The translations under genes were made by a program, and so were the position numbers. The notes under the pieces are model-generated. The model had not been told where the DNA came from. It was given only the letters and a program-made list of their open reading frames with translations, and searched no databases. Shown here piece after piece: positions 10,375-26,430 of a stretch of 64,000 nucleotides of DNA. Location of the stretch: NCBI GenBank assembly GCA_017676145.1, contig GCA_017676145.1_3628.1; one strand, given 5' to 3'. How positions within the stretch are numbered: position 1 is the stretch's first letter; every line of letters starts with the position of its first letter. This stretch comes from a phage.

Positions 10375-10494
10375 ATGTTTCAAGCCATGTTTATTGAAAT
10401 GCTCTCTGGAGTATTACTGCTAGTAGCCATTTTGGGTGGCGCGGCACTGATGTATAATTATCTTGAAAAAGGGGACAGTAATGACAAAAAATAA
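10375..10494 (+). CDS. micro-ORF encoding hydrophobic peptide (39 aa)
   Basis: ATG 6 nt after gaggggg SD; MFQAMFIEMLSGVLLLVAILGGAALMYNYLEKGDSNDKK; overlaps next start by 14 nt. Not on track. Confidence 0.35.
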   Translation: MFQAMFIEMLSGVLLLVAILGGAALMYNYLEKGDSNDKK

Positions 10495-10666
10495 ATCCTT
10501 AGAACAGGCTGAAAACCTTCTCCACGAGCTGGTAAAGGAGTGGAAAGTCGAATACTCAGATTTTAATGCAAGAGAGGGGGAAGATTATTGGCCTACGGAG
10601 CGCTCAGAGGGAGAGTGGTATCAAGATTTCATAGAATGGTTATATCAGACGTGCGATGAGGGGTGA
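10481..10666 (+). CDS. hypothetical acidic protein (61 aa)
   Basis: ATG at M7 of track ORF 10463..10666 preceded by aaggggac SD. Confidence 0.45.
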   Translation: MTKNKSLEQAENLLHELVKEWKVEYSDFNAREGEDYWPTERSEGEWYQDFIEWLYQTCDEG

Positions 10667-10668
10667 CG

Positions 10669-11124
10669 ATGTTTGTTAAATATGTAAAAACGTGCCTCAA
10701 CAACCTTGGTAGAGAGCATTGGTACACCCTGCTTGAAAAAGGAGAAATTTTAACAAAATCTGGAAAGATAACTTTGATACCCTTGGATGATAAAGACCCG
10801 TCACTACTTGTCATAGATGATTACGTTACAGGTGTGTCGTACGAAGTCTCTGTGGAGAGGTTAATACGCAGATCTGGAGGGCCTTATGACCGAAGAGAGT
10901 ATGTTTTCGATTCTGTTACAGAGAAGGAGGATCCGTCTCTAATGTTTAGGATGGTAATCAGAGATATGAAATCATCTATACATAGGATCGTAAAGGACAT
11001 TAAAGAGCCTTTTAGGGTAAAAGTTAAGAAGTTTTTTGATTCTAAGATCAACATACTCGCCGTTGTGCTGGGCGTAATTCAACTTCTGTTAATTTTGCAC
11101 TATCTTGAACTGTTGTTCAAGTAG
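10669..11124 (+). CDS. hypothetical protein with C-terminal TM segment (151 aa)
   Basis: ATG at M3 of track ORF 10663..11124; C-terminal ILAVVLGVIQLLLILHYL. Confidence 0.5.
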   Translation: MFVKYVKTCLNNLGREHWYTLLEKGEILTKSGKITLIPLDDKDPSLLVIDDYVTGVSYEVSVERLIRRSGGPYDRREYVFDSVTEKEDPSLMFRMVIRDMKSSIHRIVKDIKEPFRVKVKKFFDSKINILAVVLGVIQLLLILHYLELLFK

Positions 11125-11184
11125 TGTACAACAAGGCACAAAGGATGTGCCATGATCAAATAAACTAAGAAAGAGGTAGAGAGA

Positions 11185-11532
11185 ATGCCAAAGATTAAGT
11201 CGATACTAATGTGGGCAGCTGTTGTGGCTTTTGTAGGATACTGGACTTGGGAAACTGAATTAAAAGATATCGGATATACCAGTCTTGAGAGCAAGGCATG
11301 CATTGGCATAACCGATGCATTCAGGCAAAATGCTATGGATCACGAATGTGTCGATGCAGATATAGATGAGAAACTGTCTAAGGACAAGGATTTTTACCAT
11401 GGTCATGCCTTGCTTGATAGTGGTGACACTGTAGAATTCTGGTCGTGGTTCCGTGAAGATGGAACAATAAAGACAGCAGTAAAGATTTCCAACAAAGAGT
11501 TAATGCTGTTGCAGCAGAAGGAGGTGCAATGA
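11185..11532 (+). CDS. hypothetical protein with N-terminal TM/signal-anchor (115 aa)
   Basis: agaggtagagag SD; N-terminal ILMWAAVVAFVGYWTW. Confidence 0.5.
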   Translation: MPKIKSILMWAAVVAFVGYWTWETELKDIGYTSLESKACIGITDAFRQNAMDHECVDADIDEKLSKDKDFYHGHALLDSGDTVEFWSWFREDGTIKTAVKISNKELMLLQQKEVQ

Positions 11533-11816
11533 TTTGGATATCCTACACTGATGGCACCATGCTGTATACTGCAGGTACTAGGTATGAAGTTCAGGAGGAC
11601 GATAAAAAATTTATCGTAAAAACATTTGACAAGGACGACAACCTTTTGTTAGAATTGACTTACAAGGTTGGGGAGGTATCTAGCATCCAATTGGATTGCG
11701 GTCATAAAGATAACCCGCTCAAGAAACCTGGGGTAGGTAAAGCTTCAGAAGAACGCCTGTCTCGTATTGCAGAAAGTGTTTCTGCACAAAAATCTAAGAA
11801 GGGGACTAGAAAATGA
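11529..11816 (+). CDS. hypothetical protein (95 aa)
   Basis: Track ORF, start overlaps upstream stop (ATGA). Confidence 0.5.
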   Translation: MIWISYTDGTMLYTAGTRYEVQEDDKKFIVKTFDKDDNLLLELTYKVGEVSSIQLDCGHKDNPLKKPGVGKASEERLSRIAESVSAQKSKKGTRK

Positions 11817-12007
11817 AAAACTTACGTTTTAACACTTATTACTACAACACTTTGAATGATTTGTATTATATTGTTCGAAGTAAAAGTCCTGAAACAGTCC
11901 TATTCTGCCGCGAACCTTTCAAAGGGGAGGAAGTAGAGTCTGAGATGAATGTTAGCCATATTACCTCTTTGTTGCTCTCAGGTGCAATGGAAGAAGCAAT
12001 ATTCTAA
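11813..12007 (+). CDS. hypothetical protein (64 aa)
   Basis: Track ORF, start overlaps upstream stop. Confidence 0.45.
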   Translation: MKNLRFNTYYYNTLNDLYYIVRSKSPETVLFCREPFKGEEVESEMNVSHITSLLLSGAMEEAIF

Positions 12008-12025
12008 ACCAGTCGGGAGGGTTCT

Positions 12026-12211
12026 ATGAAGCACTATTGCCTGTCTGGTAGGATGGGTGCAGATTGTGATTGGATTTTCTTAAAACTTGTCAGCATCCGA
12101 GAGTCAATCCCAGAGGAAGAGCAAGAAAGCGAGCTGATGTCATGGATCAACTATTACGGCAACACTTTCCGGTATGTCAAAATGGAAGAGCTGCCAAACG
12201 AGGATGATTGA
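12026..12211 (+). CDS. hypothetical protein (61 aa)
   Basis: Track ORF with gggaggg SD. Confidence 0.45.
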   Translation: MKHYCLSGRMGADCDWIFLKLVSIRESIPEEEQESELMSWINYYGNTFRYVKMEELPNEDD

Positions 12212-12213
12212 TT

Positions 12214-12303
12214 ATGGTCGCATCAATATTAACGTTTATGGGTGGCGTGGCATTCGGATTCATTATTTGTCTGTTTATAGTTATTATGGCTATGCGAGGC
12301 TGA
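12214..12303 (+). CDS. micro-ORF encoding TM peptide (29 aa)
   Basis: MVASILTFMGGVAFGFIICLFIVIMAMRG between two track ORFs; weak SD. Not on track. Confidence 0.3.
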   Translation: MVASILTFMGGVAFGFIICLFIVIMAMRG

Positions 12304-12306
12304 ATT

Positions 12307-12591
12307 ATGAAACTGTTTGAGTGGTTTAAAAAGTTTAAATACCGAGCCGTTGCTGTATCGAAATGGACCGTCCGCTGGGTGGACGATGATGGAACACAAA
12401 TTCCAGGTGATCAGGATACAGGATACTGGGTTATGATGGAGAACGGATTTGGGAAAAGGAAGTTTAAATGTGTTGGTGCTCCTACTCTTTTAAATGTTAG
12501 AAGTGTGCCAGGGTACAGCACTATGGTTGTTTGGGAGCTATCCGGTGTTCCTCCTGCCAATGTGCAATATCTGCCAAACCCAGAAAAATAA
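12307..12591 (+). CDS. hypothetical protein (94 aa)
   Basis: Track ORF. Confidence 0.5.
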   Translation: MKLFEWFKKFKYRAVAVSKWTVRWVDDDGTQIPGDQDTGYWVMMENGFGKRKFKCVGAPTLLNVRSVPGYSTMVVWELSGVPPANVQYLPNPEK

Positions 12592-12603
12592 AAGGAGAAG
12601 ATA

Positions 12604-12888
12604 ATGAGCAATGGTGTCAGTAACAGTGCTGCAGAGTTTAAAGTGATCTGTAAAGGAACTTATTGGATAGTGAAACAGAAGGTGTACCTATTCGGTTTCA
12701 TACCGTTTTGGCAGAGATTTTGCTGGGGAGCTAACGAGCTTAAGAGATACGCTACCAAGTCTATGGCACTTATTGGTATAGCTGAATACATTGCTGCCAG
12801 AGACAGAGAGGGGAAAACTTGTTACTACACTGCTGACGAGATTCGTAACAGTGTTTACGTTCCACAACCGCCCGATGGAGACCGCTGA
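12604..12888 (+). CDS. hypothetical protein (94 aa)
   Basis: Track ORF with aaaaggagaag SD. Confidence 0.5.
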   Translation: MSNGVSNSAAEFKVICKGTYWIVKQKVYLFGFIPFWQRFCWGANELKRYATKSMALIGIAEYIAARDREGKTCYYTADEIRNSVYVPQPPDGDR

Positions 12889-13112
12889 TGAAAGTTAAAG
12901 TTTTAGATTCAAACTTCTATATTGGTCAAGAGCCTTTAGTTGGAAAAGTGTTTACCGCTATCCCTAACGAAGATTATCCTGACCTTTTAAAAATAAAAGG
13001 GGAAGATCTTATTGCCGCTGGCGCGTCTCAGGAATGCTTTGACAGTCAGTGGACCTACAACTTTGCCCTAGGGGAGGATGTGGAGGTAGTGGAGGACGAT
13101 TATGAAGGTTAA
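12888..13112 (+). CDS. small protein, MKVK...EVVEE family member (first gene of duplicated triplet A)
   Basis: MKVKVLDSNFYIGQ..IKGEDLIAAGA...VEVVEDDYEG; ATGA overlap with upstream gene. Confidence 0.55.
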   Translation: MKVKVLDSNFYIGQEPLVGKVFTAIPNEDYPDLLKIKGEDLIAAGASQECFDSQWTYNFALGEDVEVVEDDYEG

Positions 13113-13356
13113 AATTCTTGACTCTAACGTCTACTTGGGACAATCATTCCTGAAGGGAAAGGTCGTACCTGCTGTATACTTCGAAGGGTTGCCGTGGGAT
13201 GATCCTGTGCGGCAAAATCACAGCCATGTAGGCCACAATGTGGTGTTCATTTTGGGATCAGACCTGATCGCGGCTGGTGCCCCGGAATATTATTTCGGAG
13301 ATGACTCGTATTATGCCTTTGGGGTAGGGTCAGATGCAGATATTTTAGAGCCGTGA
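13102..13356 (+). CDS. small protein, MKVK family member (triplet A, gene 2)
   Basis: MKVKILDSNVYLGQ...LGSDLIAAGA; paralogous to 12888 and 9266 ORFs. Confidence 0.55.
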   Translation: MKVKILDSNVYLGQSFLKGKVVPAVYFEGLPWDDPVRQNHSHVGHNVVFILGSDLIAAGAPEYYFGDDSYYAFGVGSDADILEP

Positions 13357-13767
13357 TTGGGGACTGTTGTGAAAAATAAACTGTTCAAAGTTACAATGAA
13401 AATTCGCGGAGCTTGGAGCGTAAAGCAAGGGCGTATCCCGGAATTTGAGAAAGACTTCTACGTAGTCTCTACCTCTGAAGAGGCTGCATGCTGGCAGGCT
13501 GGCTATGCCTACGCAAGAACTTGGTACGAAGGGTACCAGACTGGGGGCTATGACGGAGAAATTGTCAGTAAGGGTGTGGAAGAAATTAATGTGTTGACAA
13601 GTGAAAAAGTTTTTGTTATAGTACATCCTGATTCCAGAGTGAAGCATTACTGGAATGCCAGAACAAAAACCTGGACACCGTTTGCAGATTCTGCTACACC
13701 ACTTTTAAACCAGAAAGCTCTTGACTCTGCCCCGAGCTACGGGGTTGTTGAAGAAAAGATAAGCTGA
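13357..13767 (+). CDS. hypothetical protein (about 130 aa), paralog of 15571..15966 (triplet A, gene 3)
   Basis: Shares HP..S.V.HYW...T.TWTP block with 15571 ORF; exact start uncertain (TTG 13357 / GTG 13369 / ATG 13396). Confidence 0.45.
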   Translation: MGTVVKNKLFKVTMKIRGAWSVKQGRIPEFEKDFYVVSTSEEAACWQAGYAYARTWYEGYQTGGYDGEIVSKGVEEINVLTSEKVFVIVHPDSRVKHYWNARTKTWTPFADSATPLLNQKALDSAPSYGVVEEKIS

Positions 13768-13784
13768 AATAGTGGGGTACTTAC

Positions 13785-14075
13785 ATGATGGATTTAGTTT
13801 TGGATACTGATAACACCGAATCGTTTAAAAAAGATGGTGTAATAAGCATGGACCAATCCTGCCATGCCAAGATTGACTCAAAATGGACCTACAAGTTTGA
13901 CGGTGAGATCTTCGCAAATGATGAGAAGGTCGTGGATGCTGTAGCCATTTTAAAAGCTTTAGGGTATGACCCTGTGAACTCATTGATCAAGGATCCTGTT
14001 GAGTTTGCAGAGTATGTTCGTAAAATGGCAGATCTTGCAGTGGATATTTTAAAAACTATCGACGACAAGCTGTAA
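13785..14075 (+). CDS. hypothetical protein (96 aa)
   Basis: Track ORF with ggggta SD. Confidence 0.5.
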   Translation: MMDLVLDTDNTESFKKDGVISMDQSCHAKIDSKWTYKFDGEIFANDEKVVDAVAILKALGYDPVNSLIKDPVEFAEYVRKMADLAVDILKTIDDKL

Positions 14076-14081
14076 AAACTG

Positions 14082-14110
14082 TTGACACAACATTTGATCT
14101 TTAGTATCAT
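14082..14110 (+). promoter_or_regulatory. sigma70-like promoter (TTGACA-17-TATCAT) upstream of hpf-like gene, followed by 5' UTR hairpin
   Basis: ttgacacaacatttgatctttagtatcat, then gaggg-tttggtt-ccctc hairpin (about 14121-14137), aaggag SD, ATG 14158. Confidence 0.5.
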
Positions 14111-14157
14111 TATTTTCAAAGAGGGTTTGGTTCCCTCTTCTTTAAAAGGAGCACGTT

Positions 14158-14475
14158 ATGCAGATTGAAATCACTGGCAACGTAGAGATCACTGAAGGTA
14201 TGGTGTCTTTCATTTCCCACAAAATGTCCAAACTGGAGCGTTTGCACCCATCTGCCAACTATGCACGTGTGAGTGTAAAAGTTGAAAATGATCACCAGGA
14301 AGTTATGGCTTTTATTTTTGACAATTCTGGGAAAGAAGTTATCGCCAAAGCTAAAGGTAGCGATGCTTACGAGGCAACTGACCGTATGGTGGATGTTGCA
14401 GCACGCCAGTTGGCTAAATGCGGTGGAAAGAAAGGTAAGGGAAAAGGTAAAGTAAAGATTGACTTTTGGGATTGA
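14158..14475 (+). CDS. hpf: ribosome hibernation promoting factor / RaiA (S30AE family) homolog
   Basis: N-terminus MQIEITGNVEITEG and ...AARQLAK closely parallel E. coli HPF (MQLNITGNNVEITEA...LARQLTK); 105 aa with Lys/Gly-rich tail. Confidence 0.75.
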   Translation: MQIEITGNVEITEGMVSFISHKMSKLERLHPSANYARVSVKVENDHQEVMAFIFDNSGKEVIAKAKGSDAYEATDRMVDVAARQLAKCGGKKGKGKGKVKIDFWD

Positions 14476-14484
14476 GGTGCTACA

Positions 14485-14586
14485 ATGGGTATGATTAAGA
14501 AATTAGTCCCAAATGTAGAGATTGCATGCTTTGAAATTATGTTTGCAATCGCAGTTGTAGTTAATGTGTTAGGTTACGGCTATTAA
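14485..14586 (+). CDS. micro-ORF encoding hydrophobic peptide (33 aa)
   Basis: ATG 5 nt after gaggtg SD; MGMIKKLVPNVEIACFEIMFAIAVVVNVLGYGY. Not on track. Confidence 0.3.
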   Translation: MGMIKKLVPNVEIACFEIMFAIAVVVNVLGYGY

Positions 14587-14612
14587 TATCAAATAATTGA
14601 GGAGACCTCTAA

Positions 14613-14882
14613 ATGAAAATTAAATTATTCAAAACTGAGCTGGCAGACAAAAACTGCGGACTGGTTGAAGGCATGATCGTTGAAGCACAACCAGTGGACT
14701 ACATGAAGGTGGTTCGTGATGCTCTGGGTGAAGGTTTTGATCTGATGGAGCCAGCTCTGCGAGAAGATGTCATCGAGATGGCTAAAAAGCACACACCGGA
14801 AGGTTTGGTAGTGTTTGTTGCTCCAGGTAACGGAGAAGAGTTGATTGTAACTCCGGATGTGTATGAGGTTGTAGAGGAGTAA
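14613..14882 (+). CDS. small protein with C-terminal YEVVEE (family-related)
   Basis: MKIKLF start, ends VYEVVEE; gaggagacc SD. Confidence 0.55.
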   Translation: MKIKLFKTELADKNCGLVEGMIVEAQPVDYMKVVRDALGEGFDLMEPALREDVIEMAKKHTPEGLVVFVAPGNGEELIVTPDVYEVVEE

Positions 14883-14970
14883 TCTTGGGTTAGCCATACT
14901 TCCTCGACAAGAAAGGTTTGTAATTATTTGCGGGAAAGGAATCCCCATCTCTTACCAGAGGTGATACTGT

Positions 14971-15234
14971 ATGATTGTTTATTTTAAAACTTCAGGTGGA
15001 TACCCTGATTCTCAAAGCTTGATTGGAAAAACGTGCACAGCATACTCGCCTCTTGATGATGAGGTAAGTGATACCCTACGAAATATGTATCGGATTGATC
15101 CACAAGAAGCTTTTGATCAGAACCTTGTATTTGTCAAGGGCTCAGACATGAAGTCTTTGGGGGCATTTCCTGAAGCAGATGATAATGCTGTTTATTCGTT
15201 TATGACCCCTTTTGAAGCTATGGTTGTTGGGTGA
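14971..15234 (+). CDS. small protein, MKVK family-related (triplet B, gene 1)
   Basis: ...VKGSDMKSLGA... core; gaggtga SD. Confidence 0.5.
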   Translation: MIVYFKTSGGYPDSQSLIGKTCTAYSPLDDEVSDTLRNMYRIDPQEAFDQNLVFVKGSDMKSLGAFPEADDNAVYSFMTPFEAMVVG

Positions 15235-15238
15235 GAAT

Positions 15239-15571
15239 ATGAAAGTACGCTTTATTGGTGAAACAATTCCTGTGCATCTCCGGTCGCCTGAGGATTCTGC
15301 AGATCTTGCATCTCAAAAGGCCAGAGGGTATGATAAGAAAGTAATCTCAACCGATGTAGAGCTTGAGGCTACCAGTCTGCCTGACCCTGCTGCATTCTTT
15401 AATCATTATGGATACTATTTCAGCAATCTGATGAATATCGGTGAGCTTGTGTTTATTAGTGGTGGAGAAATAGTTAGCAAGCTTGGCGGCGATCCGGATG
15501 TCTTTCATGAAACCTGCCCTTTTGCATTTGTGGTAGGTTCAGATGTGGAAGTTATTGAGGAGGTGCGGTAA
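15239..15571 (+). CDS. small protein, MKVK family member (triplet B, gene 2)
   Basis: ATG at M10 of track ORF 15212..15571 (MKVRFIGE); C-terminal VEVIEEVR. Confidence 0.5.
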   Translation: MKVRFIGETIPVHLRSPEDSADLASQKARGYDKKVISTDVELEATSLPDPAAFFNHYGYYFSNLMNIGELVFISGGEIVSKLGGDPDVFHETCPFAFVVGSDVEVIEEVR

Positions 15572-15966
15572 TGGTAAGTCTATACCGTGTTGAGTATAGC
15601 TCAGATACTGTATACAACGTAAGAAGCAAAGATCGTAGCGACAGAGTGCAAGAAATGTATGTTCTTGCCGACAGTCCGTTATCTGCAGCGTTTAAGGCAG
15701 GAGCTCTTGCATCTCGTTGGAAATTCGAGGGTGGATCTTTCTATGAAGAAACTCTTGAAGATTCTGTTGTTATTTCTTCTGTAGAGGTTTCAACTGACTA
15801 CGAAGGGAAAAAGTTCGTAATGCGGCACCCACACAGCAACATTGCGTACTACTGGGATGTTCTGAACAACGAGTGGACTCCAGATCTTCAGAAGGCCACT
15901 GTTCTGACTCCGTTCTTGGCAGATAAGTTCCCACCAGAAGGTAATTTATCTGCACTGTTTCAGTAA
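15571..15966 (+). CDS. hypothetical protein (131 aa), paralog of 13357..13767 (triplet B, gene 3)
   Basis: Shares RHPHSNIAYYW...NEWTP block with 13357 ORF. Confidence 0.5.
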   Translation: MVSLYRVEYSSDTVYNVRSKDRSDRVQEMYVLADSPLSAAFKAGALASRWKFEGGSFYEETLEDSVVISSVEVSTDYEGKKFVMRHPHSNIAYYWDVLNNEWTPDLQKATVLTPFLADKFPPEGNLSALFQ

Positions 15967-15984
15967 TTTTATTCTACACAGGTG

Positions 15985-16013
15985 TTGACAACACCAACCC
16001 TGTGTGCAATAAT
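15985..16013 (+). promoter_or_regulatory. sigma70-like promoter (TTGACA-17-AATAAT) flanked by inverted repeat
   Basis: cacaggtgttgacaacaccaaccctgtgtgcaataat; cacagg/cctgtg inverted repeat brackets the -35 region (possible operator). Confidence 0.45.
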
Positions 16014-16045
16014 ACCTTCATCTTAACAAGACAGGAGACTGATTG

Positions 16046-16303
16046 ATGAAGATTAAATTGAAAAACCTTGAAATGGCAGAGGTTCAGGAAGGTGTTGATT
16101 TCCGCTCTAAAGATGGCGACATCTTAGAGGCGAATATCCCGACCTATAAGTTGATTAAAGGTTTTGGCAACGTTCCTGAAGAGGATATTACAGACATTCT
16201 TATGATGTTGATCCTTGACGGGACCGTGTTTGTAGGTGAAGGTGAGAACGCTATTGCAATCCCAGGCCATTTTTATGAAGTAGTTGACGAAGAGGTGCTG
16301 TAA
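16046..16303 (+). CDS. small acidic protein with C-terminal YEVVDEEVL (family-related)
   Basis: ATG at M2 of track ORF; acaggag SD. Confidence 0.5.
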   Translation: MKIKLKNLEMAEVQEGVDFRSKDGDILEANIPTYKLIKGFGNVPEEDITDILMMLILDGTVFVGEGENAIAIPGHFYEVVDEEVL

Positions 16304-16983: not shown

Positions 16984-17270
16984 TGAAAGGTTTGGTTAAG
17001 ATCAAGATTAAAGACACCAAGGGAGAACTCAGCCATTTTGGAATTAACGATGGTGACGAGCTGATCGCCCACCTGCCTACCAAGGAAGTTGTAAGCAAAG
17101 CTGTTGCCGGAGAAGAAGATGCAATGCAGGCTGCAGGTGTGGATGAAAACTATGTAGCAATGTGTATGTGCCGAGATCAGGTTGTTCTGTATAAAGCGTA
17201 TCGACCAAATGGAGCACCTGAGTGGCTTGTTTTCCGACCCGAAGGGTATGAAATTTTAGAGACGCTATGA
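16983..17270 (+). CDS. hypothetical protein (95 aa)
   Basis: Track ORF, start overlaps upstream stop. Confidence 0.5.
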   Translation: MKGLVKIKIKDTKGELSHFGINDGDELIAHLPTKEVVSKAVAGEEDAMQAAGVDENYVAMCMCRDQVVLYKAYRPNGAPEWLVFRPEGYEILETL

Positions 17271-17359
17271 TAAATCTTGCCAAGGTTGCAACGGCACTGT
17301 TAATTATTTGCTGGATAGTGACCTTGGCACTATGTCTTGTATTTCATTAAGGGGGCTGT

Positions 17360-17623
17360 ATGAACATCCTGATGTGGGTTGTGGCAGTGGCGTTTGTTGC
17401 GTGCCTCTCTTGTTGGGTTGCTGTGAGGATTTCTATAGCCACTCTTCGGAAATTAGGGTTCTCAGAGTGGGATATTAATATCCTCTCTTTTCGCAATGAG
17501 ACGATCTCAGCTGCCTTACTGTGCAAGAAGTTCAAGTGGAAACCTTGGGAGGTCATGAGCTATCTAAGAACAGGAGATATTCCTGAGAGATTTAAAAAAG
17601 TTCTTGACGGCGAAGATAAATGA
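17360..17623 (+). CDS. small membrane protein (87 aa)
   Basis: N-terminal TM helix MNILMWVVAVAFVACLSCWVAV; gggggctg SD. Confidence 0.5.
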   Translation: MNILMWVVAVAFVACLSCWVAVRISIATLRKLGFSEWDINILSFRNETISAALLCKKFKWKPWEVMSYLRTGDIPERFKKVLDGEDK

Positions 17624-17651
17624 TAGTATAGTTACTAACAAGAGGTGAGGA

Positions 17652-17792
17652 ATGACTGATTTTACTGAAGCTTTAATGATGGCCTTATCTGTTTTAGCGC
17701 TGTCGGTGTGTTTTGGGGCGTTATTCACATCTCTGGTTAAAGTTTTACATACCATATTATCACCCAAGGAGCACAGTAATGACGAAGATTGA
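17652..17792 (+). CDS. micro-ORF encoding TM peptide (46 aa)
   Basis: ATG after gaggtgagg SD; MTDFTEALMMALSVLALSVCFGALFTSLVKVLHTILSPKEHSNDED; overlaps next start by 14 nt. Not on track. Confidence 0.3.
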   Translation: MTDFTEALMMALSVLALSVCFGALFTSLVKVLHTILSPKEHSNDED

Positions 17793-19054: not shown

Positions 19055-19079
19055 CAAAATATCAAATTTAAGGCACCTA

Positions 19080-19296: not shown

Positions 19297-19710
19297 CCTC
19301 ACATAGTTTGTAGAATATGGAATACGCAATGAAAACATTATCCGAGGTTTTGGTGGTGATCCTGATGATCATTACGTCCATAGCAGTTGTTGCCGGAATA
19401 CTCACGGGTGGAACATGACCAACACACATGCATCTGAAGAGGTGACTATAGAGAAAAACTTCAATTCTGAGGATTCTCTATCTCCGTCCCAGGTGGACCC
19501 TGAGGCTGATGACCTGACGTGGGAGGACATCATAGCCATCTGGTTCTCTATCATGCCTGAGAACGAAGAGTTCAGAGGTGGCAGACTATGAAGCACCGAG
19601 CCCACACAAGTTTATCATGCTAAAGCATGGCCTGAAGAGGCAAACGTGCATAATTCCTGTGCATTGGAACGTATAACCCTGTTCACACTCTCATTTCCAG
19701 AGGAGATTTT

Positions 19711-20053: not shown

Positions 20054-20081
20054 TTGACATTCTTACCTATCCTGATAAAAT
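20054..20081 (+). promoter_or_regulatory. sigma70-like promoter (TTGACA-16-TAAAAT) followed by hairpin + T-run within about 50 nt
   Basis: ccttgacattcttacctatcctgataaaat, then ccgagtaattcggg hairpin and T-rich tract (about 20110-20135): possible very short transcript or attenuator. Confidence 0.35.
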
Positions 20082-20660: not shown

Positions 20661-21044
20661 AGCAAATATCACACCCACAAATATCATCACCTGAAGAGTG
20701 ATTCCTCCCATAATCCACACCCTGCCTGAAGAGCGCTTCATACACCGCGTAAATTTTTTAATTGATCCCTCCCCGCCGCCGGAGAGGTTGGCTTTTCCCA
20801 CACAGGCCTGAAGAGTCAGCCAGAAATATCTGAAGGGTGTCCAGTTCTACCACGATTTTGACCTGACCTACAGGAGTGCTGCCCTGTCAGGAGCCGTAGC
20901 GACTGGAGTGCTGCCAGGCGGACGAAATGGGAATACTTCTCATTCTTATAACAATTCTCAAATATCGGGGCAGTGAGGCAAATTAATAGGCGAGGCCGCT
21001 CACACAGTGGCACAACATTTGCAGGCTATTTTGTGGGGGTGAAT

Positions 21045-21078
21045 GAGAATACCTATCATTGTGAGAATAGTTATCATT
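21045..21078 (+). repeat. tandem pair of 16-bp motif GAGAAYRNYTATCATT
   Basis: gagaatacctatcatt and gagaatagttatcatt 2 nt apart; same motif recurs at about 31924 and 32050. Confidence 0.55.
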
Positions 21079-21473
21079 ACGGGCAATTTAACATAATACC
21101 CATTATGCGCACCACTGTCGATACATACAGGGATTGATAACATGGGTTACTGTTTACGCATATAACAATTGTATTTCTTATTATTTGTGGGGGATATAGT
21201 TAGCAACCAATAGATTAGTTATTAACCTGCGGACTTCTGACCGTCTAGACGTCCAAACGCCCACACCACAAGGATTATACATACACTCCTGAATGTAAAC
21301 AGGTCCGAAAAAATGCTACCATACCAGTTTGTAAATTTTCCATGCAGCACTTGACAAAGAGGAGAAAAACTTGTCTGACACCTTATACACACCGGGCACC
21401 TTATACACTTTCGACACAATAACGACTGTTATTATTTCATGTTTCATTATTCACGTGCAGATTGTTCCTGCGT

Positions 21474-21535
21474 AGACTGTTTACGCCTGGATAGTTTGCA
21501 CCTGAATAGTTTACACCCTGACAGTTTACGCATAG
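21474..21535 (+). repeat. array of four AGTTTAC(G/A)C-type iterons spaced 14-15 bp
   Basis: ctgtttacgcc / tagtttgcacc / tagtttacacc / cagtttacgca in direct orientation. Confidence 0.55.
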
Positions 21536-21543
21536 ATGATAAG

Positions 21544-21562
21544 CCATGACATTCGTTTGCAT
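21544..21562 (+). repeat. 19-20 bp direct repeat copy 1 (gccatgacattcgtttgcat)
   Basis: Exact second copy at 21837..21855; the pair brackets iteron/palindrome-rich segment. Confidence 0.6.
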
Positions 21563-21594
21563 GATAACACCCTTGAGACGAGGGCTATGCTCCC

Positions 21595-21660
21595 GAGTTT
21601 AACAATTAACAAGATAACAATTGACAAGCTAACAGCCAACAAGCTGACAATTAACAGGTT
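21595..21660 (+). repeat. array of AACAATTAACAAG-like iterons
   Basis: taacaattaacaag ataacaattgacaag ctaacagccaacaag ctgacaattaacagg: four direct repeats. Confidence 0.5.
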
Positions 21661-21836
21661 AATAATATATGACATAATATAAAAGCAGGGCAACTATTAG
21701 CAGATCTATAGTTGCCTTGCTTATTATGTCATGATTAACTGAATACAAGGCAACTATGATCTGATTAATAGATTGCAGACAAACTATCACGGGGGTGATT
21801 GTTACTGCTTTTATATTATGTCGCGACTCCGTCGCG

Positions 21837-21855
21837 CCATGACATTCGTTTGCAT
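21837..21855 (+). repeat. 19-20 bp direct repeat copy 2 (gccatgacattcgtttgcat)
   Basis: Identical to 21544..21562. Confidence 0.6.
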
Positions 21856-22470
21856 AGTTGCCTTATTGTTACAGGTAAAATAATTACATTGTTAACTATT
21901 TCTTATCTTTCTCTTAGTCATCTAATGATTCCAGTCAGTATAGTTATGTGCAGTAAACATTAGACGACTAAAGATTTCTCTGATTATAGTAACCTATCGT
22001 GACAATTTCGGACTGTTTACGAAAAATGTTGACACCTGGGCAGGTTTATGTTATGCAGTTTGTACGAATAATTATTTTGTACAGGTATTGACTATTCCGT
22101 TATTCTGTGGTTGGAATAAATACTTTGCAGGCTATAGAATGGTGATCGTACGTGGATTCTGAGATCTGTCGGCTATAGTTACACCCGATTTTTCACGTAG
22201 GACGCGCTTTTTGGTTTGTGTAAGTGTATGACTTATAAGGGTTTTTAATTGTTGACAGTATACTGAAAATGTGCATCAGGTTAAATTTTGCGCAATAGCT
22301 GCATTACGTGCAATTTTGGGAGAGAAAACAGGTAAAAATAGCACCGCTACCACACAATGAAAGGTTATGCAATAGTTATTTTACATGTATATTTGTACAG
22401 TGTGCTGGATTAATGGCTCGTCAATTATTCCACTTGTCAGGTAGGGCCGTTTATGGTAGGAAAAGAGCAG

Positions 22471-22497
22471 ACAAAAAAGAAAGGGGCCTAAGCCCCC
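22471..22497 (-). terminator. rho-independent terminator at the 3' end of the leftward block
   Basis: On - strand ggggc-ttag-gcccc hairpin followed by TTTCTTTTTT; 15 nt after stop of 22512..22775. Confidence 0.6.
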
Positions 22498-22511
22498 TTG
22501 ATAATGTTGTA

Positions 22512-22775
22512 TTATTTGTTGCTCATCCAGTTTTCCCAAGCTGCCTGATAATCTGCCTCACTGCGGCGGATCTCTTCTTGTTCTTCAAGCCGGATCTCTT
22601 CTTCCAGGTACCCAAGGATATCGGATTTTTTGGTCTGGCGTAACATCCAATCATCTTTTTTACGAGTAAAGATCTTGTACGCTTTCTCGCAAACCTCTTT
22701 TTTACTACCTTTTTGGACTTCAAGAACTTTGTAGGCCATGTACTGAACTAGTTTGAGCTGATCAAGACGTTTCAT
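22512..22775 (-). CDS. hypothetical charged protein (87 aa)
   Basis: Track ORF; aagaggta SD; last gene of leftward block. Confidence 0.5.
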   Translation of the reverse strand: MKRLDQLKLVQYMAYKVLEVQKGSKKEVCEKAYKIFTRKKDDWMLRQTKKSDILGYLEEEIRLEEQEEIRRSEADYQAAWENWMSNK

Positions 22776-22838
22776 GATGTTTACCTCTTTATGGGGTTCT
22801 GGTTTGGTGTGGGCCTTTTGGCCCGTGTCATTATCTTA

Positions 22839-23111
22839 TTACTTGCGGCGGCAAAATTCAAGCGTTTTTAATTGATAATCTTCCTCAGCCTGGAGTACAA
22901 CCGCCTCGATCATTTCGTTGGCATTGGTGAAGCCATACCCTTGAGCGAACTCATCCGCGCCACCTTCGTGATCATGTTCTGCGTTCATCGCTTCCACAAA
23001 ATGGAATTCAAGATTATTGAGGTAAGGGCTTGATGTTCCGTCCTCTTTTTCGATGAGATCCCAAATAGCGTTGAAACGTGATTCGACTTCTTGGTTAATC
23101 CAGCTTGACAC
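22839..23111 (-). CDS. hypothetical acidic protein (90 aa)
   Basis: Track ORF (GTG start) downstream of promoter 23166..23194 and 5' UTR hairpin. Confidence 0.45.
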   Translation of the reverse strand: MSSWINQEVESRFNAIWDLIEKEDGTSSPYLNNLEFHFVEAMNAEHDHEGGADEFAQGYGFTNANEMIEAVVLQAEEDYQLKTLEFCRRK

Positions 23112-23165
23112 GGCGTTTTCCTCTCTTCTGGTTGTTGTGTGGGCACTTTTGCCCCTTCAAGGTAA

Positions 23166-23194
23166 ATGCTACCCCACCACCTGGCAGATGTCAA
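23166..23194 (-). promoter_or_regulatory. sigma70-like promoter (TTGACA-17-TAGCAT) with CCAGGTGG spacer box
   Basis: - strand ttgacatctgccaggtggtggggtagcat; the spacer box gccaggtgg is shared with the + strand promoter at 31824. Confidence 0.4.
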
Positions 23195-23224
23195 CGGTTT
23201 TTATAGTTTTTTATATAACAGGCA

Positions 23225-23246
23225 CCCCCGGTGATTGTCTCCCCCC
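23225..23246 (-). promoter_or_regulatory. GC-rich conserved element GGGAGACAATCACCGGGGG (copy 1 of 3)
   Basis: - strand ggggggagacaatcaccggggg about 30 nt upstream of the -35; near-identical copies at 31886 and 32002 on + strand. Confidence 0.45.
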
Positions 23247-23280
23247 GTCGCCAGGTGCCGCCCGTAAAACAAGTATAACA

Positions 23281-23310
23281 AAAAACAGGACCATTGCAAG
23301 CCCTGTTTTA
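23281..23310 (-). terminator. putative intrinsic terminator (short stem)
   Basis: - strand acagg...cctgt stem followed by TTTTT, after stop of 23324..23515. Confidence 0.3.
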
Positions 23311-23323
23311 TAGTTTATAAAGA

Positions 23324-23515
23324 TTATATTTTTTCGCCTATGTAGTCCGGTCGGTTTTTCTCTGTCATGCGCTTGAGCAATTCTTGCATGTTGCTTATGG
23401 CTTGCAGTGTATCCCCTTCCAGACTTGAATCAACATAATCAGGATCGTCTATAACCTTTTTATGATTATGATAACGCAGTACCGCCAGTACTTTTTTAAC
23501 CTCTTCTGCTGTCAT
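23324..23515 (-). CDS. hypothetical protein (63 aa)
   Basis: Track ORF; taggtg SD. Confidence 0.45.
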   Translation of the reverse strand: MTAEEVKKVLAVLRYHNHKKVIDDPDYVDSSLEGDTLQAISNMQELLKRMTEKNRPDYIGEKI

Positions 23516-23523
23516 TATCGCAC

Positions 23524-23658
23524 CTAAAACAATGAGTTAATATATAACACCAGATCGCTGACTACCAGGACAACACCGATCAGCACATACCTAACCATAA
23601 AGGGAAAGATCGCCAATATTGCCGCCACGATCCCTATGGTAATAATTATCTTTCTCAT
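23524..23658 (-). CDS. micro-ORF encoding TM protein (44 aa)
   Basis: ATG 3 nt after stop of upstream gene; MRKIIITIGIVAAILAIFPFMVRYVLIGVVLVVSDLVLYINSLF. Not on track. Confidence 0.35.
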   Translation of the reverse strand: MRKIIITIGIVAAILAIFPFMVRYVLIGVVLVVSDLVLYINSLF

Positions 23659-23660
23659 GG

Positions 23661-23945
23661 TTAACGGTTCACGTAAGTTTTCCCGTTTACGGTTATCGGC
23701 AGATCCTCCAGGTCTGGATCTTCTTTAAGGTCGCGAGCAAGCTCACCGCACCGGATACCTTCGAATCCGTAGTACTCTGTTGTGCCGTCCTTAAAAGTTT
23801 TTGCGGCAAGGCATAACCGATAAGTAACACCGATTTGATTGACGGCATGGATATCAGTTAGATCTACCTCTTTTGCCAGCTCTTTAGCCATTACAGGCGC
23901 ATTAAGTCCAATAACCAGGGCAACTACTGCGATCATCTTTTTCAT
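23661..23945 (-). CDS. small secreted protein (94 aa) with N-terminal signal peptide
   Basis: MKKMIAVVALVIGLNAPVMA signal-like N-terminus followed by two Cys. Confidence 0.55.
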   Translation of the reverse strand: MKKMIAVVALVIGLNAPVMAKELAKEVDLTDIHAVNQIGVTYRLCLAAKTFKDGTTEYYGFEGIRCGELARDLKEDPDLEDLPITVNGKTYVNR

Positions 23946-24034
23946 GTTGTCTATTCTCTTTCTGCTGCGTTTAAGGCGGTCACCGCCGCCTGTTTATGCT
24001 TTGTTAGTTAATGGGGCGTACGGTATAGATTAAA

Positions 24035-24250
24035 CTATGCTGTACGCTCAACTATAACAACGGCTTGAGGGATCTCACCTTCCACCACTATCAAGGCTTT
24101 TTTCTGCGTGATAGATATCTTTACCCGCTTCAGCGTGGCGGTAAAATCTTTCATTTCGTCACGTGGTGTTTTAGTGCAATACCAGATCTCAGGCTTACCT
24201 ATTTGCAAGCCGCGTAAAAATTCCGTTTTGCCTGTTTTGTTCGTGATCAT
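24035..24250 (-). CDS. hypothetical protein (71 aa)
   Basis: ATG at M4 of track ORF 24035..24259; aaggtga SD. Confidence 0.45.
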   Translation of the reverse strand: MITNKTGKTEFLRGLQIGKPEIWYCTKTPRDEMKDFTATLKRVKISITQKKALIVVEGEIPQAVVIVERTA

Positions 24251-24260
24251 TTGTTTCACC

Positions 24261-24365
24261 TTACCCGATACCGTGGGAAGATAGGATCATGTTAGCCATA
24301 GTTGCAACCACTCCAACCGATAATGCCATGCCAACTACTACAACCGTGAAAATTTTTTCTAACAT
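24261..24365 (-). CDS. micro-ORF encoding TM peptide (34 aa)
   Basis: MLEKIFTVVVVGMALSVGVVATMANMILSSHGIG; not on track. Confidence 0.3.
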   Translation of the reverse strand: MLEKIFTVVVVGMALSVGVVATMANMILSSHGIG

Positions 24366-24437
24366 GATTCCACCATCATTAATGGGCGTTGCCTTATTGC
24401 CCCGCCCTATGTCGTACATTTTTCTTCTGATCCTCTG

Positions 24438-24701
24438 TTAGCATACGATAGCGATCACGCCGCCACAAATAAAAGGTAAATCAAAACGGTCTACCTTGCA
24501 AGCTATTTTTAAACGAAAGGCAACATAAAAGAAAAGTTGCAAACAATCGATCATTGTGTTAGCTGTTGAAACGCTGCCAGCATTAAACATCGCCCCGCCC
24601 ACGGCGTTAAACGTTGCGTTACTCACGAAAGCGAAAAGGCAAGCGATCACGGTGGCGATCATAATGTTGCGTTTTGTCAATCTGTAAATGATGTTTCTCA
24701 T
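24438..24701 (-). CDS. small membrane protein (87 aa)
   Basis: Track ORF with hydrophobic segments; start uncertain (alternative internal ATG at about 24662). Confidence 0.4.
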   Translation of the reverse strand: MRNIIYRLTKRNIMIATVIACLFAFVSNATFNAVGGAMFNAGSVSTANTMIDCLQLFFYVAFRLKIACKVDRFDLPFICGGVIAIVC

Positions 24702-24765
24702 TCTGTCATGTTGGCGGCATCGCTGCCGCCTTATGTATTATGCTTTGTTAGATTGTTGTTTGTTG

Positions 24766-24999
24766 TCAACTATTTTCAAAAAATTTTTCTGCTGTAATAT
24801 TTTTCCCGGTAGGGTTCGCTACTTTCAAAATTTTATCATGCACTGGACGCCCAAAAGAATAAGCGCCGTACACAGTACACCAATAATCGCCGTCAGGCTG
24901 TACTATTACCGCCGCATAGGGTACGCCTTTTTCGTTTTTGCTGACAAAATAGATCACATTGCCATTAATAGCCTCAGCGCGTTTAATTTGTTCCATCAT
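24766..24999 (-). CDS. hypothetical protein (77 aa)
   Basis: Track ORF; aggtga SD. Confidence 0.5.
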   Translation of the reverse strand: MMEQIKRAEAINGNVIYFVSKNEKGVPYAAVIVQPDGDYWCTVYGAYSFGRPVHDKILKVANPTGKNITAEKFFENS

Positions 25000-25062
25000 G
25001 ATGATTCACCTATCTTTATTTTTTCATAGTTTCAGGAGGGGCCTTTTTCGGCCCCGCCAGGC

Positions 25063-25347
25063 TTATTTATTGATGGCGTGCAGCGGGAAAGGTACGCCAG
25101 GTTGATAGATAACTTTTACAACCTCATCAGGGCAAAAGAAGTTACAAAATTCACCCTGATAAGCCTCATCCTCTTTTAATTCTTCACCAACATACTGGAA
25201 AAAGTAGTCAATGCTTGGATAATCCTGGCCGGGATTATAGTCGACCATTGTCAGGACTAACTCAAGATCGTTGCGTAGGATATGCATGCCCGCTTTTAAG
25301 TATTTTGCTTCCATTTCTACTACATCGCCAAAGGTAACAATAGCCAT
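25063..25347 (-). CDS. hypothetical acidic protein (94 aa)
   Basis: Track ORF; agaggag SD; downstream of promoter 25404..25432. Confidence 0.5.
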   Translation of the reverse strand: MAIVTFGDVVEMEAKYLKAGMHILRNDLELVLTMVDYNPGQDYPSIDYFFQYVGEELKEDEAYQGEFCNFFCPDEVVKVIYQPGVPFPLHAINK

Positions 25348-25403
25348 GATTTTAACTCCTCTCTATCCGGTTAATGATTGGGGGCCGCCCCCCTGATACG
25401 TCC

Positions 25404-25432
25404 TATTATCCATATTGTAGGGCTTGATGCAA
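25404..25432 (-). promoter_or_regulatory. sigma70-like promoter (TTGCAT-17-ATAATA)
   Basis: - strand ttgcatcaagccctacaatatggataata; shares AATATGGATAATA with promoter 26223..26251. Confidence 0.45.
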
Positions 25433-25571
25433 GTACTTTTTAAAAATTTTTTAAACGCCTTGGGGGCCGCTGTAGCGCTAAAATAAAAAAGGCCATGCAA
25501 CCGCATAGCCTTTGTGCGATTATATCGCTGCAGGCCCTGCCACGGGCCTTATTTTGCATCATTTGCCGGAA

Positions 25572-25877
25572 TTATCTGGAGAAAACATCGTTCACAATAG
25601 CGATCACAATGCCGCCCACCTTGTCACGGTCAACAATGCACAAATCACCATAGATCATGTGGTAGTCTGGATGATCTTTCACGGAATAGTCAATAAGTGT
25701 CTTCTTATCATCCAGCTTTTTAACTTCCACAGTCATTGTAATAAATTGATCGTTAAAGGCACTATTGCGGAAGATCATTACCTGGCCGCCTTGACATCCA
25801 GTGATCTCAACTTCCACGCCGTCTACGATCTGACCATCAAAGAAATAAAGATTATTGGCGGGTATGAACATGATCAT
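25572..25877 (-). CDS. hypothetical protein (101 aa)
   Basis: Track ORF; aaaaggag SD. Confidence 0.5.
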   Translation of the reverse strand: MIMFIPANNLYFFDGQIVDGVEVEITGCQGGQVMIFRNSAFNDQFITMTVEVKKLDDKKTLIDYSVKDHPDYHMIYGDLCIVDRDKVGGIVIAIVNDVFSR

Positions 25878-25915
25878 TGCTCCTTTTTGCGCTGATTATT
25901 TTAGCAGGGTTTAAA

Positions 25916-25961
25916 TTTACTTTATTTGATGGCCCTGGAGTCAAGGCCATCTAAAAATAAA
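25916..25961 (-). repeat. 46-bp conserved intergenic element, copy A
   Basis: tttactttatttgatggccctggagtcaaggccatctaaaaataaa immediately 3' of stop codon of 25964..26164; near-identical to copies at 29635 and 30257. Confidence 0.6.
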
Positions 25962-25963
25962 CT

Positions 25964-26164
25964 TTACAGGCCTACAATGTCTTTAATTCGTTTTACTGCT
26001 GCCTCAGCGCCTTGAGGGTAAAAATTATGGTAACCAATCACGCGGGTAATACTGATCGCCGCCTGATGATCTTCGTAATACCCCTTGAATATTTCTTGAC
26101 CATCAACCAGCACAGCAATTTTTTCTTCTTTTTTGAAGTTAATAACGCGGATATTGTTGCTCAT
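25964..26164 (-). CDS. hypothetical protein (66 aa)
   Basis: Track ORF; aaaaggag SD; own promoter and 5' UTR hairpin upstream. Confidence 0.5.
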   Translation of the reverse strand: MSNNIRVINFKKEEKIAVLVDGQEIFKGYYEDHQAAISITRVIGYHNFYPQGAEAAVKRIKDIVGL

Positions 26165-26207
26165 TTTGTTTCTCCTTTTGGAACTTTGTCTGTGTGGTGG
26201 GGAGTGT

Positions 26208-26222
26208 CTCCCCGTTGATTGT
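26208..26222 (-). promoter_or_regulatory. 5' UTR stem-loop GGGGAGACACTCCCC between promoter and SD
   Basis: Perfect palindrome located between -10 of promoter 26223..26251 and the RBS of 25964..26164. Confidence 0.45.
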
Positions 26223-26251
26223 TATTATCCATATTCAGGACCGGATTGCAA
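26223..26251 (-). promoter_or_regulatory. sigma70-like promoter (TTGCAA-17-ATAATA)
   Basis: - strand ttgcaatccggtcctgaatatggataata. Confidence 0.45.
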
Positions 26252-26261
26252 CACCCCGGAA

Positions 26262-26306
26262 GAAAAATTTTTTGAAAAAAGTTAGGCCCCCCAGGGATCG
26301 GGGGCC
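26262..26306 (-). terminator. rho-independent terminator
   Basis: - strand ggcccccgatccctggggggcc hairpin followed by long T-rich tract. Confidence 0.55.
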
Positions 26307-26310
26307 GTTA

Positions 26311-26430
26311 TCAGGTACGTACAGCGATAAAATACATCCCTACGCCTAACAATATTTCAAGGGCGAGGATCTCCAGCCATACCATAACACGGCGCGCCTT
26401 ATCGGTGCGGAGCTTATCCTTGGGTGTCAT
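26311..26430 (-). CDS. micro-ORF encoding TM protein (39 aa)
   Basis: ATG after strong SD (aggaggaaaggggga); MTPKDKLRTDKARRVMVWLEILALEILLGVGMYFIAVRT. Not on track. Confidence 0.4.
   Translation of the reverse strand: MTPKDKLRTDKARRVMVWLEILALEILLGVGMYFIAVRT

Follow-up and report, generated by a model that had tools for sequence, protein, structure and literature searches.

Short reading frames with hydrophobic cores lie between the annotated genes of an rV5-like E. coli myophage, and they raise the question of whether they are translated genes or products of chance, whether they are new, and what their peptides could do. The window, a stretch of 64,000 nucleotides, is from a Vequintavirus and is 98% identical to phage FV3. 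Seven such ORFs, here called A to G, had been listed in an earlier note made from the letters alone. We confirmed their positions, strands, and lengths: A (10375..10494, +, 39 aa), B (12214..12303, +, 29 aa), C (14485..14586, +, 33 aa), D (17652..17792, +, 46 aa), E (23524..23658, −, 44 aa), F (24261..24365, −, 34 aa), and G (26311..26430, −, 39 aa), all with ATG starts. The hydrophobic core claimed for them was found in each, as a 17-residue window with a mean Kyte-Doolittle value (KD17) of 2.34-2.81. Two further ORFs were considered, X (17267..17350, +, 27 aa), which is absent from that list, and Y (19317..19418, +, 33 aa). KD17 was 2.3-3.0 for all of the peptides, with one hydrophobic stretch of about 17-23 residues that could span a bilayer.

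The abundance of such ORFs was examined in the region 9480-27500, where transmembrane (TM)-like small ORFs were defined as those of 25-59 aa with KD17 of at least 2.0. There were 20 of them, compared with 3.65 +/- 1.7 in 100 dinucleotide shuffles of the same region. The recurrence from which the earlier note argued is real as an excess over shuffles and does not reflect paralogy, as the peptides are unrelated in sequence. A Smith-Waterman shuffle test gave z = 5.6 for D and G and z = 3.4 for C and Y, and BLASTP returned no D-G alignment; these scores were treated as effects of TM composition. Hydrophobicity alone is insufficient to identify a gene, because three TM-like ORFs, at 25440-25562 (−), 22791-22871 (+), and 26133-26285 (+), are broken in most relatives and were rejected.

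Coding status was assessed by four features: an open frame, indels in multiples of three, third-position bias, and pN/pS below 1 in the proposed frame. Relatives were drawn from GenBank records, and an IMG/VR scan with two neighbouring proteins gave 5 loci only. Integrity counts refer, for each ORF, to the loci carrying its DNA, and prevalence counts to about 120 genomes or records. The conservation in related phages that the earlier note had proposed as a check was found, each of A to G, X, and Y being intact in every relative that carries its DNA, and the indels within the ORFs (+3, +3, and −3 nt) are all multiples of three. Among these genomes, which are only about 5-13% diverged and phylogenetically non-independent, substitutions at codon positions 1, 2, and 3 of the seven ORFs pooled were 78:43:125 (p = 1e-9), in comparison with 127:69:374 in accepted genes and a flat 233:226:216 in ORFs that failed. 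Taken singly, A and F show a clear bias and B, D, E, and G a marginal one, whereas that of C is non-significant. In the proposed frame the pN/pS ratio of the seven was 0.07-0.49, with mostly higher values in the alternative frames; that of failing gap ORFs was 0.7-1.4. For most of the peptides it was 0.27-0.49, looser than in neighbouring genes (0.06-0.23). As judged from these substitution patterns, the comparison shows that the coding status and the hydrophobic character of the peptides are under purifying selection, and the claim that they are real genes rather than chance holds.

That some or all of them are chance hydrophobic ORFs in conserved non-coding spacers, kept as regulatory DNA or RNA, is a reading to which C gives the most direct access, as its coding signal is the weakest of the seven. 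Its substitutions (6/3/6, p = 0.38) show no codon-position bias, and its pN/pS of 0.43 is similar to that in the +1 frame. The DNA in which C lies shows unusually little synonymous divergence (pS 0.067), so that constraint on the nucleotides themselves could play a part, and its region forms a slightly more stable fold than shuffled sequence (z = −2.6), with too little variation to test the fold. X likewise lacks an individually significant bias (5/4/9, p = 0.11). An open frame is itself weak evidence at such divergence, because the clearly non-coding nearby ORFs 19132 and 19214 are also unbroken in all relatives. A chance origin would nevertheless have to account for the pooled third-position bias where failing ORFs are flat, for indels confined to multiples of three, for exchanges of ATG with GTG starts and of TAA with TGA stops, and for alleles of F only 56-59% identical that keep both length and TM character. 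An Rfam scan of 9.4-27.6 kb gave no match, nor did a tRNA scan of the region, and a hairpin at X is not maintained. We consider a chance origin scarcely credible. C itself, directly 3' of a phage HPF/RaiA gene, is present at full length with at least 91% aa identity in 118 of 118 records, behind a strong SD (GAGGT, spacing 6; GAGGTG conserved).

The SD-like sequences that had been attributed to all seven ORFs precede A, B, C, D, and G, and also F, where the match is weak in the window and clear in relatives; E has none. In the window, GAGG/AGGA motifs lie at 9-10 nt from A and B. The single-TM peptide A is intact in 14/14 loci with one +3-nt indel, and has codon-position counts of 3/4/24 and a pN/pS of 0.07; most genomes use GTG as its start codon, and GGAG lies 8-9 nt ahead of it. 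The 57-aa form called in FV3, starting at 10321, was rejected, as a 1-nt indel upstream breaks its frame in most genomes, and the 39-aa start is supported by the alignment over this longer GenBank call. D, a TM peptide with acidic termini, is intact in 15/15 loci and found at full length in 118 records, each from a Vequintavirus (13/5/17; pN/pS 0.30). It has a strong SD (GAGGTGAGGA), and just upstream is a sigma-70-like promoter motif, TTGACG-17-TATAGT (17604..17632, +), predicted from its consensus match (10/12) only.

F occurs as two alleles, both of 34 aa with the TM segment retained (20/7/26; pN/pS 0.40) and with a conserved C-terminal ATM(A/S)NMILSS(H/N)GIG. The window carries the phi92-type allele, which shares 91-94% identity with its counterparts in phi92, Schickermooser, and ZCKP1, whereas rV5 carries the other. 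Its SD is GATGGTGGA in the window and GAGGGTGGA in relatives. Longer forms of F (52 aa, and 46 aa as called in rV5) were rejected: substitutions in the extension are flat (7/7/5), and a 4-nt indel also marks it as non-coding. The 34-aa start is thus the one supported by this comparison. A GGGCG...CGCCC leader hairpin lies upstream of F (24384..24407, −), and at its position the locus L007 has another stem, GCGGGA...TCCCGC. TTGACA-N17-TAAAGT is found upstream of F in the relatives L015, L024, and L007 and not in the window allele.

Several of the junctions between these ORFs and their neighbours are very tight (ATGA, TAATG, or 2-3-nt spacers), as would be expected if the ORFs were translated only as spacers that hand ribosomes on to the gene behind them, with no function for the peptide itself. 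B, whose TM peptide has a GxxxG motif (G11-G15), is one example. Its last codons provide the SD for the gene that follows, and B is flanked by two copies of the stop/SD/start junction, CGAGGATGATTGATT before its own start (12199..12213, +) and CGAGGCTGAATT before the start of the next gene (12295-12306, +). Genomes without B have a single junction, consistent with B having been lost or gained precisely, as a cassette. B is intact in the 11/11 loci carrying it (5/0/7; pN/pS 0.27); a clean absence was seen in 3 loci, and 91 of about 121 records contain it. E, a very hydrophobic peptide, has no SD of its own, and its ATG stands 2 nt after the upstream stop (TAACCATG), a position that fits translational coupling. 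E is intact in 13 loci, with one −3-nt indel, and missing from MiataMamis (24/16/30; pN/pS 0.49). Genomes without B or E, however, join the flanking genes directly, and G, with nothing to couple to, stands last ahead of a terminator: an intrinsic-terminator-like hairpin of 7 G-C pairs followed by TAACTTTTTT (26285..26306, −) comes immediately 3' of its stop. Amino-acid-level purifying selection and a TM core kept in diverged alleles would also be unexpected if translation alone mattered, and a pure coupling role is in our judgement quite improbable. The G peptide is basic at its N-terminus and has two Glu within its C-terminal TM segment, and its gene is preceded by a strong SD (AGGAGG...GGGGGAG). 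G is intact in 13/13 loci with one +3-nt indel (7/8/15; pN/pS 0.31), and the 119 records with a full-length copy are all Vequintavirus.

Homologues of E of 44 aa with 55-59% identity are found in the Phapecoctavirus phages ZCKP1 (gp224) and Schickermooser. Alignments of these and of the F alleles show that E and F have been exchanged with phi92/phAPEC8-like phages, as far as allele identity can tell. These orthologues of E and F belong to another subfamily, and the diverged alleles of both keep length and TM character. As judged from distribution, C, D, G, and X are shown to be genus core, and B and E to be dispensable cassettes. The charged residues of E are only at 2, 3, 23, and 35, and it could form a two-helix hairpin instead of a single TM helix.

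The novelty that the earlier note implied did not hold. All seven ORFs are already known: six were published for rV5 in 2013, and B is annotated in newer genomes. Table S3 of the rV5 paper (Kropinski et al. 2013, PMC3606486) lists A, C, D, E, F, and G as "membrane protein, 1 TMD" by TMHMM/Phobius, as gp126, gp140, gp151, gp165, gp168, and gp176 (ORFs 131, 145, 156, 170, 173, and 181 of that paper). These and FV3_00123, 137, 147, 157, 160, and 167 are syntenic and the same genes, with 82-100% aa identity for most. The description of the ORFs as invisible to a 60-aa ORF track applies to that threshold only; six are CDS in FV3 and rV5, and B is a CDS in AlexBoehm, MiataMamis, NHEP1, and other BASEL phages, in few recent records only. 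The same six have full-length PHROG matches (15251, 15151, 16755, 16005, 14631, and 13629, in the above order; E = 1e-19 to 1e-35, Y with 34195 included), and all the families matched are labelled "unknown function". For B the best PHROG hit was a partial match (E = 0.0011) to an unrelated family. Searches of Pfam, NCBIfam, and PDB gave sub-threshold noise only, E having a weak DUF7396-like match, and no characterised homologue was found there or via PHROGs. A literature search found no Vequintavirus transcriptome, infection-time Ribo-seq or proteome, or functional work specific to these peptides; the published rV5 mass spectrometry data are from virions.

We regard it as highly probable, from the comparative evidence, that these are genuine translated small genes encoding inner-membrane peptides of 27-46 residues in the Vequintavirus accessory block, the region described for rV5 as "88 mainly small ORFs". 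Each peptide would enter the inner membrane of the host as one helix, with a hairpin as a possible form for E. Their genes appear to sit in tightly packed operons with sigma-70-like promoters, so the peptides are probably expressed early, and their translation would start at an SD of their own or be coupled to that of the adjacent gene. Helix-helix contact with larger membrane proteins is the way in which characterised micro-membrane proteins of bacteria and phages work. By analogy, the peptides may contact a larger host or phage membrane protein helix to helix and thereby change processes at the envelope, for example superinfection exclusion, transport, division, or the timing of lysis, a tentative proposal that singles out no target. 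MgrB, AcrZ, MgtS, SgrT, KdpF, and SidA are bacterial small inner-membrane regulators. They resemble the peptides in having 27-49 aa and a single TM helix and, for some of the peptides, in features such as the GxxxG of B or the polar residues within the TM segment of G, but there is no sequence relationship, and the likeness is one of analogy, not membership. T4 Imm, Sp, and Ac are early membrane proteins with roles in superinfection exclusion and related processes, and are similarly small envelope proteins from early or accessory regions of a large lytic coliphage. Imm and Sp, at 83-97 aa, are larger than the peptides here and without homology to them, no Pfam or PHROG match to Imm/Sp-type superinfection exclusion being found; Sp is the subject of a structure paper (PMC7677548). 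The modulation of host membrane or cell division suggested in the earlier note is a role that is inferred only, homology and literature having given no functional link.

A role in lysis or toxicity, as holin/antiholin-like proteins, type I toxin-like depolarising peptides, or single-gene lysis proteins, would suit small hydrophobic peptides, two of which (A and D) end in a charged C-terminal tail. The 78-aa 2-TMD protein put forward as holin by the authors of the rV5 paper (PMC3606486) is encoded about 115 nt upstream of A, and G adjoins a membrane protein annotated as putative holin in BASEL. However, none adjoins the lysin (rV5 gp89, at 71.5 kb, about 22 kb away and outside the window), and the genes are spread over 16 kb in sigma-70-promoter operons. 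Pfam, NCBIfam, and PHROG gave no match to holins, to Hok, Ldr, TisB, or Ibs toxins, or to other curated families, and the Rfam scan gave no antitoxin RNA. Nine unrelated peptides are also too many for one lysis function, and we think this role unlikely. Within the helix-contact proposal, a wider scheme for which support is at the gene level is rather doubtful: the core peptides C, D, G, and X, expressed early, and the dispensable cassettes B, E, and F might each be a TM-helix ligand of a different host inner-membrane complex, in the manner of MgrB, AcrZ, or SidA, and be moved as precise cassettes via duplicated stop/SD/start junctions.

For genome scanning, the locus serves as a clean positive control: hydrophobic micro-ORFs that fit exactly into the spaces separating phage genes of one orientation are in most cases real, and look-alikes, such as the three that fail here, can be told apart from them by a simple test of frame conservation. 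The general pattern resembles that of Fremin/Sberro-type phage small-gene surveys and of the E. coli small membrane proteome (e.g. bioRxiv 10.1101/494179), which differ in being catalogue-level, none specific to these families. The gain for phage biology is modest, consisting of a confirmed share of membrane peptides among micro-genes (9-10 of about 14-15 genuine ones here, or about two-thirds), a few corrected start-codon calls, and the addition of X.

X is a candidate gene that has apparently never been annotated before. Its start overlaps the upstream stop (ATGA), and it is intact in 18/18 loci, with ATG/GTG start and TAA/TGA stop swaps, and conserved in 118/121 genomes, at a pN/pS of 0.26. 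RNA structure was rejected as the cause of this conservation, as the 8-12-bp hairpin of the window is disrupted without compensation in most alleles. None of 40 sampled records annotates X, neither of its alleles is among about 15 billion called proteins, and no PHROG family contains it. Prodigal has a 90-nt minimum, as is common in gene finders, and it is probably for this reason that pipelines do not call X, with its 84 nt. The TM peptide Y, in contrast, is annotated as bas56_0133; it is intact in the 12/12 loci carrying it, with codon-position counts of 6/5/15 and a pN/pS of 0.29, and a promoter-like site lies ahead of it at 19268-19296.

The coordinates, lengths and ATG starts of seven short ORFs, proposed in the earlier note to encode small membrane peptides, all held on inspection of the window: A (10375..10494, +, 39 aa), B (12214..12303, +, 29 aa), C (14485..14586, +, 33 aa), D (17652..17792, +, 46 aa), E (23524..23658, −, 44 aa), F (24261..24365, −, 34 aa) and G (26311..26430, −, 39 aa). 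The best 17-residue mean Kyte-Doolittle hydropathy in each is 2.34-2.81. The SD-like sequences also claimed for them stood in part, being strong for C, D and G, acceptable for A and B, weak for F in the window and absent for E. In relatives the SD of F reads GAGGGTGGA, and the start of E lies 2 nt past the upstream stop codon. Between 9480 and 27500 there are 20 short ORFs (25-59 aa) with TM-like cores, versus 3.65 ± 1.7 in dinucleotide-preserving shuffles.

On nucleotide identity, the window is assigned to Vequintavirus as an rV5-like E. coli myophage. Megablast of 10.0-18.5 and 22.5-27.5 kb against GenBank phages retrieved about 120 related records at 87-98% identity, the closest being FV3 (98.3% and 96.8% over the two intervals, respectively). 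Homologous DNA was collected from 19-26 loci across the genus and two neighbouring genera, and each ORF was aligned and scored. All seven ORFs were intact in every locus carrying the DNA, and the sole indels were of +3 nt in A, −3 nt in E and +3 nt in G. Minimum substitutions by codon position, pooled over the seven, were 78:43:125 (chi-square p = 1e-9), compared with 127:69:374 in accepted neighbouring genes and 233:226:216 (p = 0.72) in twenty ORFs that failed the test or lie in an ORF-free stretch. The pN/pS ratios in the proposed frames were 0.07 (A), 0.27 (B), 0.43 (C), 0.30 (D), 0.49 (E), 0.40 (F) and 0.31 (G), against 0.06-0.23 for accepted genes and 0.7-1.4 for most failing ORFs. These results demonstrate that A-G are coding sequences under selection, and that the peptides they specify are very hydrophobic.

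The strength of this support differs among the seven. The codon-position signal is clear for A and F, and marginal for B, D, E and G taken singly. C is the least secure, because its codon positions (6/3/6) show no bias and the surrounding DNA is low in synonymous divergence; it is full length in 118 of 118 records with at least 91% amino acid identity, and its GAGGTG SD is perfectly conserved. Full-length D and G were found in 118 and 119 records, respectively, both only in this genus. The case for real genes rather than chance is thus strong for A and F, good for B, D, E and G, and weak for C. Three further TM-like ORFs, at 25440-25562 (−), 22791-22871 (+) and 26133-26285 (+), were rejected as genes, being broken in most relatives with flat codon positions.

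Longer forms of A and F have been annotated elsewhere. The 57-aa start of A (10321, FV3_00123) is not conserved, most genomes having a 1-nt indel upstream; the 39-aa start is GTG in most genomes, with GGAG 8-9 nt before it. For F (24261-24419 with the longest start), substitutions in the extension of the 52-aa (Schickermooser gp142) and 46-aa (rV5 gp168) forms are spread 7/7/5 over the codon positions, and one relative, L007, carries a 4-nt indel there. Since the longer starts are unsupported, the 39-aa and 34-aa calls of the earlier note are the better ones. An annotation irregularity of another kind was seen in rV5 (locus L017, 7526-7796), where the 95-aa gene at window 16983-17270 is split into overlapping gp148 and gp149; this points to a frameshift there or to a mistake in sequencing.

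F occurs as two alleles with a mutual identity of only 56-59%, both of 34 aa with the TM segment kept and with a common C-terminal ATM(A/S)NMILSS(H/N)GIG. The window allele is 91-94% identical to its counterparts in phi92, Schickermooser and ZCKP1 (Stephanstirmvirinae); the last two phages also carry 44-aa homologues of E at 55-59% identity. The rejected extension, in the leader of F, contains a hairpin (24384-24407, −) whose position is taken by another stem in the same relative, L007, a compensatory-type change. A promoter-like TTGACA-N17-TAAAGT motif precedes the hairpin in L007 and two other relatives (L015 and L024), and the window allele is without the −35 motif. Promoter plus stem-loop cassettes have been described in T4-type hyperplastic regions, and the F leader appears to resemble these.

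None of the seven genes is new, all being already annotated and six of them published. All but B are CDS features in the 2008 record of rV5 and in FV3, and each of these six matches over its full length a PHROG family of its own, of unknown function. Table S3 of the rV5 paper (Kropinski et al. 2013, PMC3606486) lists as 'membrane protein, 1 TMD' ORFs 131 (39 aa), 145 (33 aa), 156 (46 aa), 170 (44 aa), 173 (46 aa) and 181 (39 aa). Public protein collections contain identical copies of A, C, D, F and G under the name 'hypothetical protein'. B is unannotated in rV5, FV3, I29 and many others, and annotated in BASEL phages, NHEP1 and MiataMamis.

B is flanked by a duplicated stop/SD/start junction (CGAGG[A/C]TGA..T-ATG; 12199-12213 and 12295-12306, +), of which a single copy is present in the genomes without B (about 30 of 121). 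This suggests that small genes of the block are gained or lost precisely via such micro-homologies. E is cleanly absent from MiataMamis, and the natural occurrence of B-less and E-less phages shows that both genes are dispensable.

The same test yielded further micro-genes and a candidate. X, a 27-aa TM ORF (MINLAKVATALLIICWIVTLALCLVFH; 17267-17350, +), occupies the space left by two accepted genes, and its ATG overlaps the stop of the first of them (ATGA). X was unbroken in 18 of 18 loci, with ATG/GTG and TAA/TGA swaps and a pN/pS of 0.26, and is present in 118 of about 121 Vequintavirus records, being annotated in none of 40 sampled; neither allele was found among about 15 billion called proteins. 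The length of X, 84 nt, falls below the usual gene-caller minimum of 90 nt. Its codon-position signal (5/4/9) is not significant alone, which makes X a good candidate for a gene but not a proven one. Y, a 33-aa TM peptide (19317-19418, +; bas56_0133), passed the conservation test, as did two non-membrane micro-genes encoding a Cys-rich 38-mer (4227-4343, +; pN/pS 0.13) and a highly basic 37-mer (4876-4989, +; pN/pS 0.06). Between 4 and 30 kb, TM peptides make up about 9-10 of about 14-15 genuine micro-genes (<60 aa) by this test, the others being these two and acidic peptides. Another, putative 39-aa TM peptide, rV5 ORF 193 ('1 TMD'), lies outside the original set at 30104-30223 (−). The analysis thereby adds one new candidate micro-gene, corrections to a few start sites, and a test that works in telling such ORFs from look-alikes.

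The peptides are encoded in operons with sigma-70-like promoters that match those annotated in rV5, for example directly 5' of D, of Y and of a gene for an HPF/RaiA ribosome hibernation factor (S30AE family; 14158-14475, +; pN/pS 0.06, strong purifying selection). The last gene is directly 5' of C and has its own sigma-70-like promoter at 14082-14110. The gene junctions favour coupled translation, and a strong terminator at G marks the end of a transcription unit. The peptides are not paralogues of one another, and none matched a holin, a type I toxin, an exclusion protein or any other curated family; a PDB search with E gave no solved structure, and a literature search found no work on the function of the peptides. 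The host-membrane or cell-division modulator function suggested in the earlier note is plausible by analogy. Early in infection the peptides would enter the inner membrane, where they may act on larger membrane proteins of host or phage through contacts between TM helices. A GxxxG motif in B and two conserved Glu in the TM segment of G are compatible with such contacts, without being proof of them.

Up to about 19.95 kb the genes are on the + strand, and beyond about 22.3 kb they are on the − strand; the two blocks meet at an ORF-free stretch of about 2.3 kb (~19950-22300) without conserved ORFs, where the GC skew changes sign. This gap, also remarked on in the rV5 paper (PMC3606486), contains four iteron-like repeats spaced by 15 nt (21602-21666) and a perfect 18-nt inverted repeat (21671-21688 / 21805-21822), gave no Rfam or tRNA match, and is a possible origin or terminus. 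At 21.2-22.6 kb the window aligns with only 2-4 relatives. Other short direct repeats are also present, and the small CDS calls that fill the stretch in some records (MiataMamis) look spurious. Among the related records, about 18-22 GenBank MG0656xx entries labelled 'UNVERIFIED: Campylobacter phage' (e.g. L010-L013 and L023) are genomes of Vequintavirus that share about 90-92% identity with E. coli phages, and their Campylobacter host label looks doubtful.
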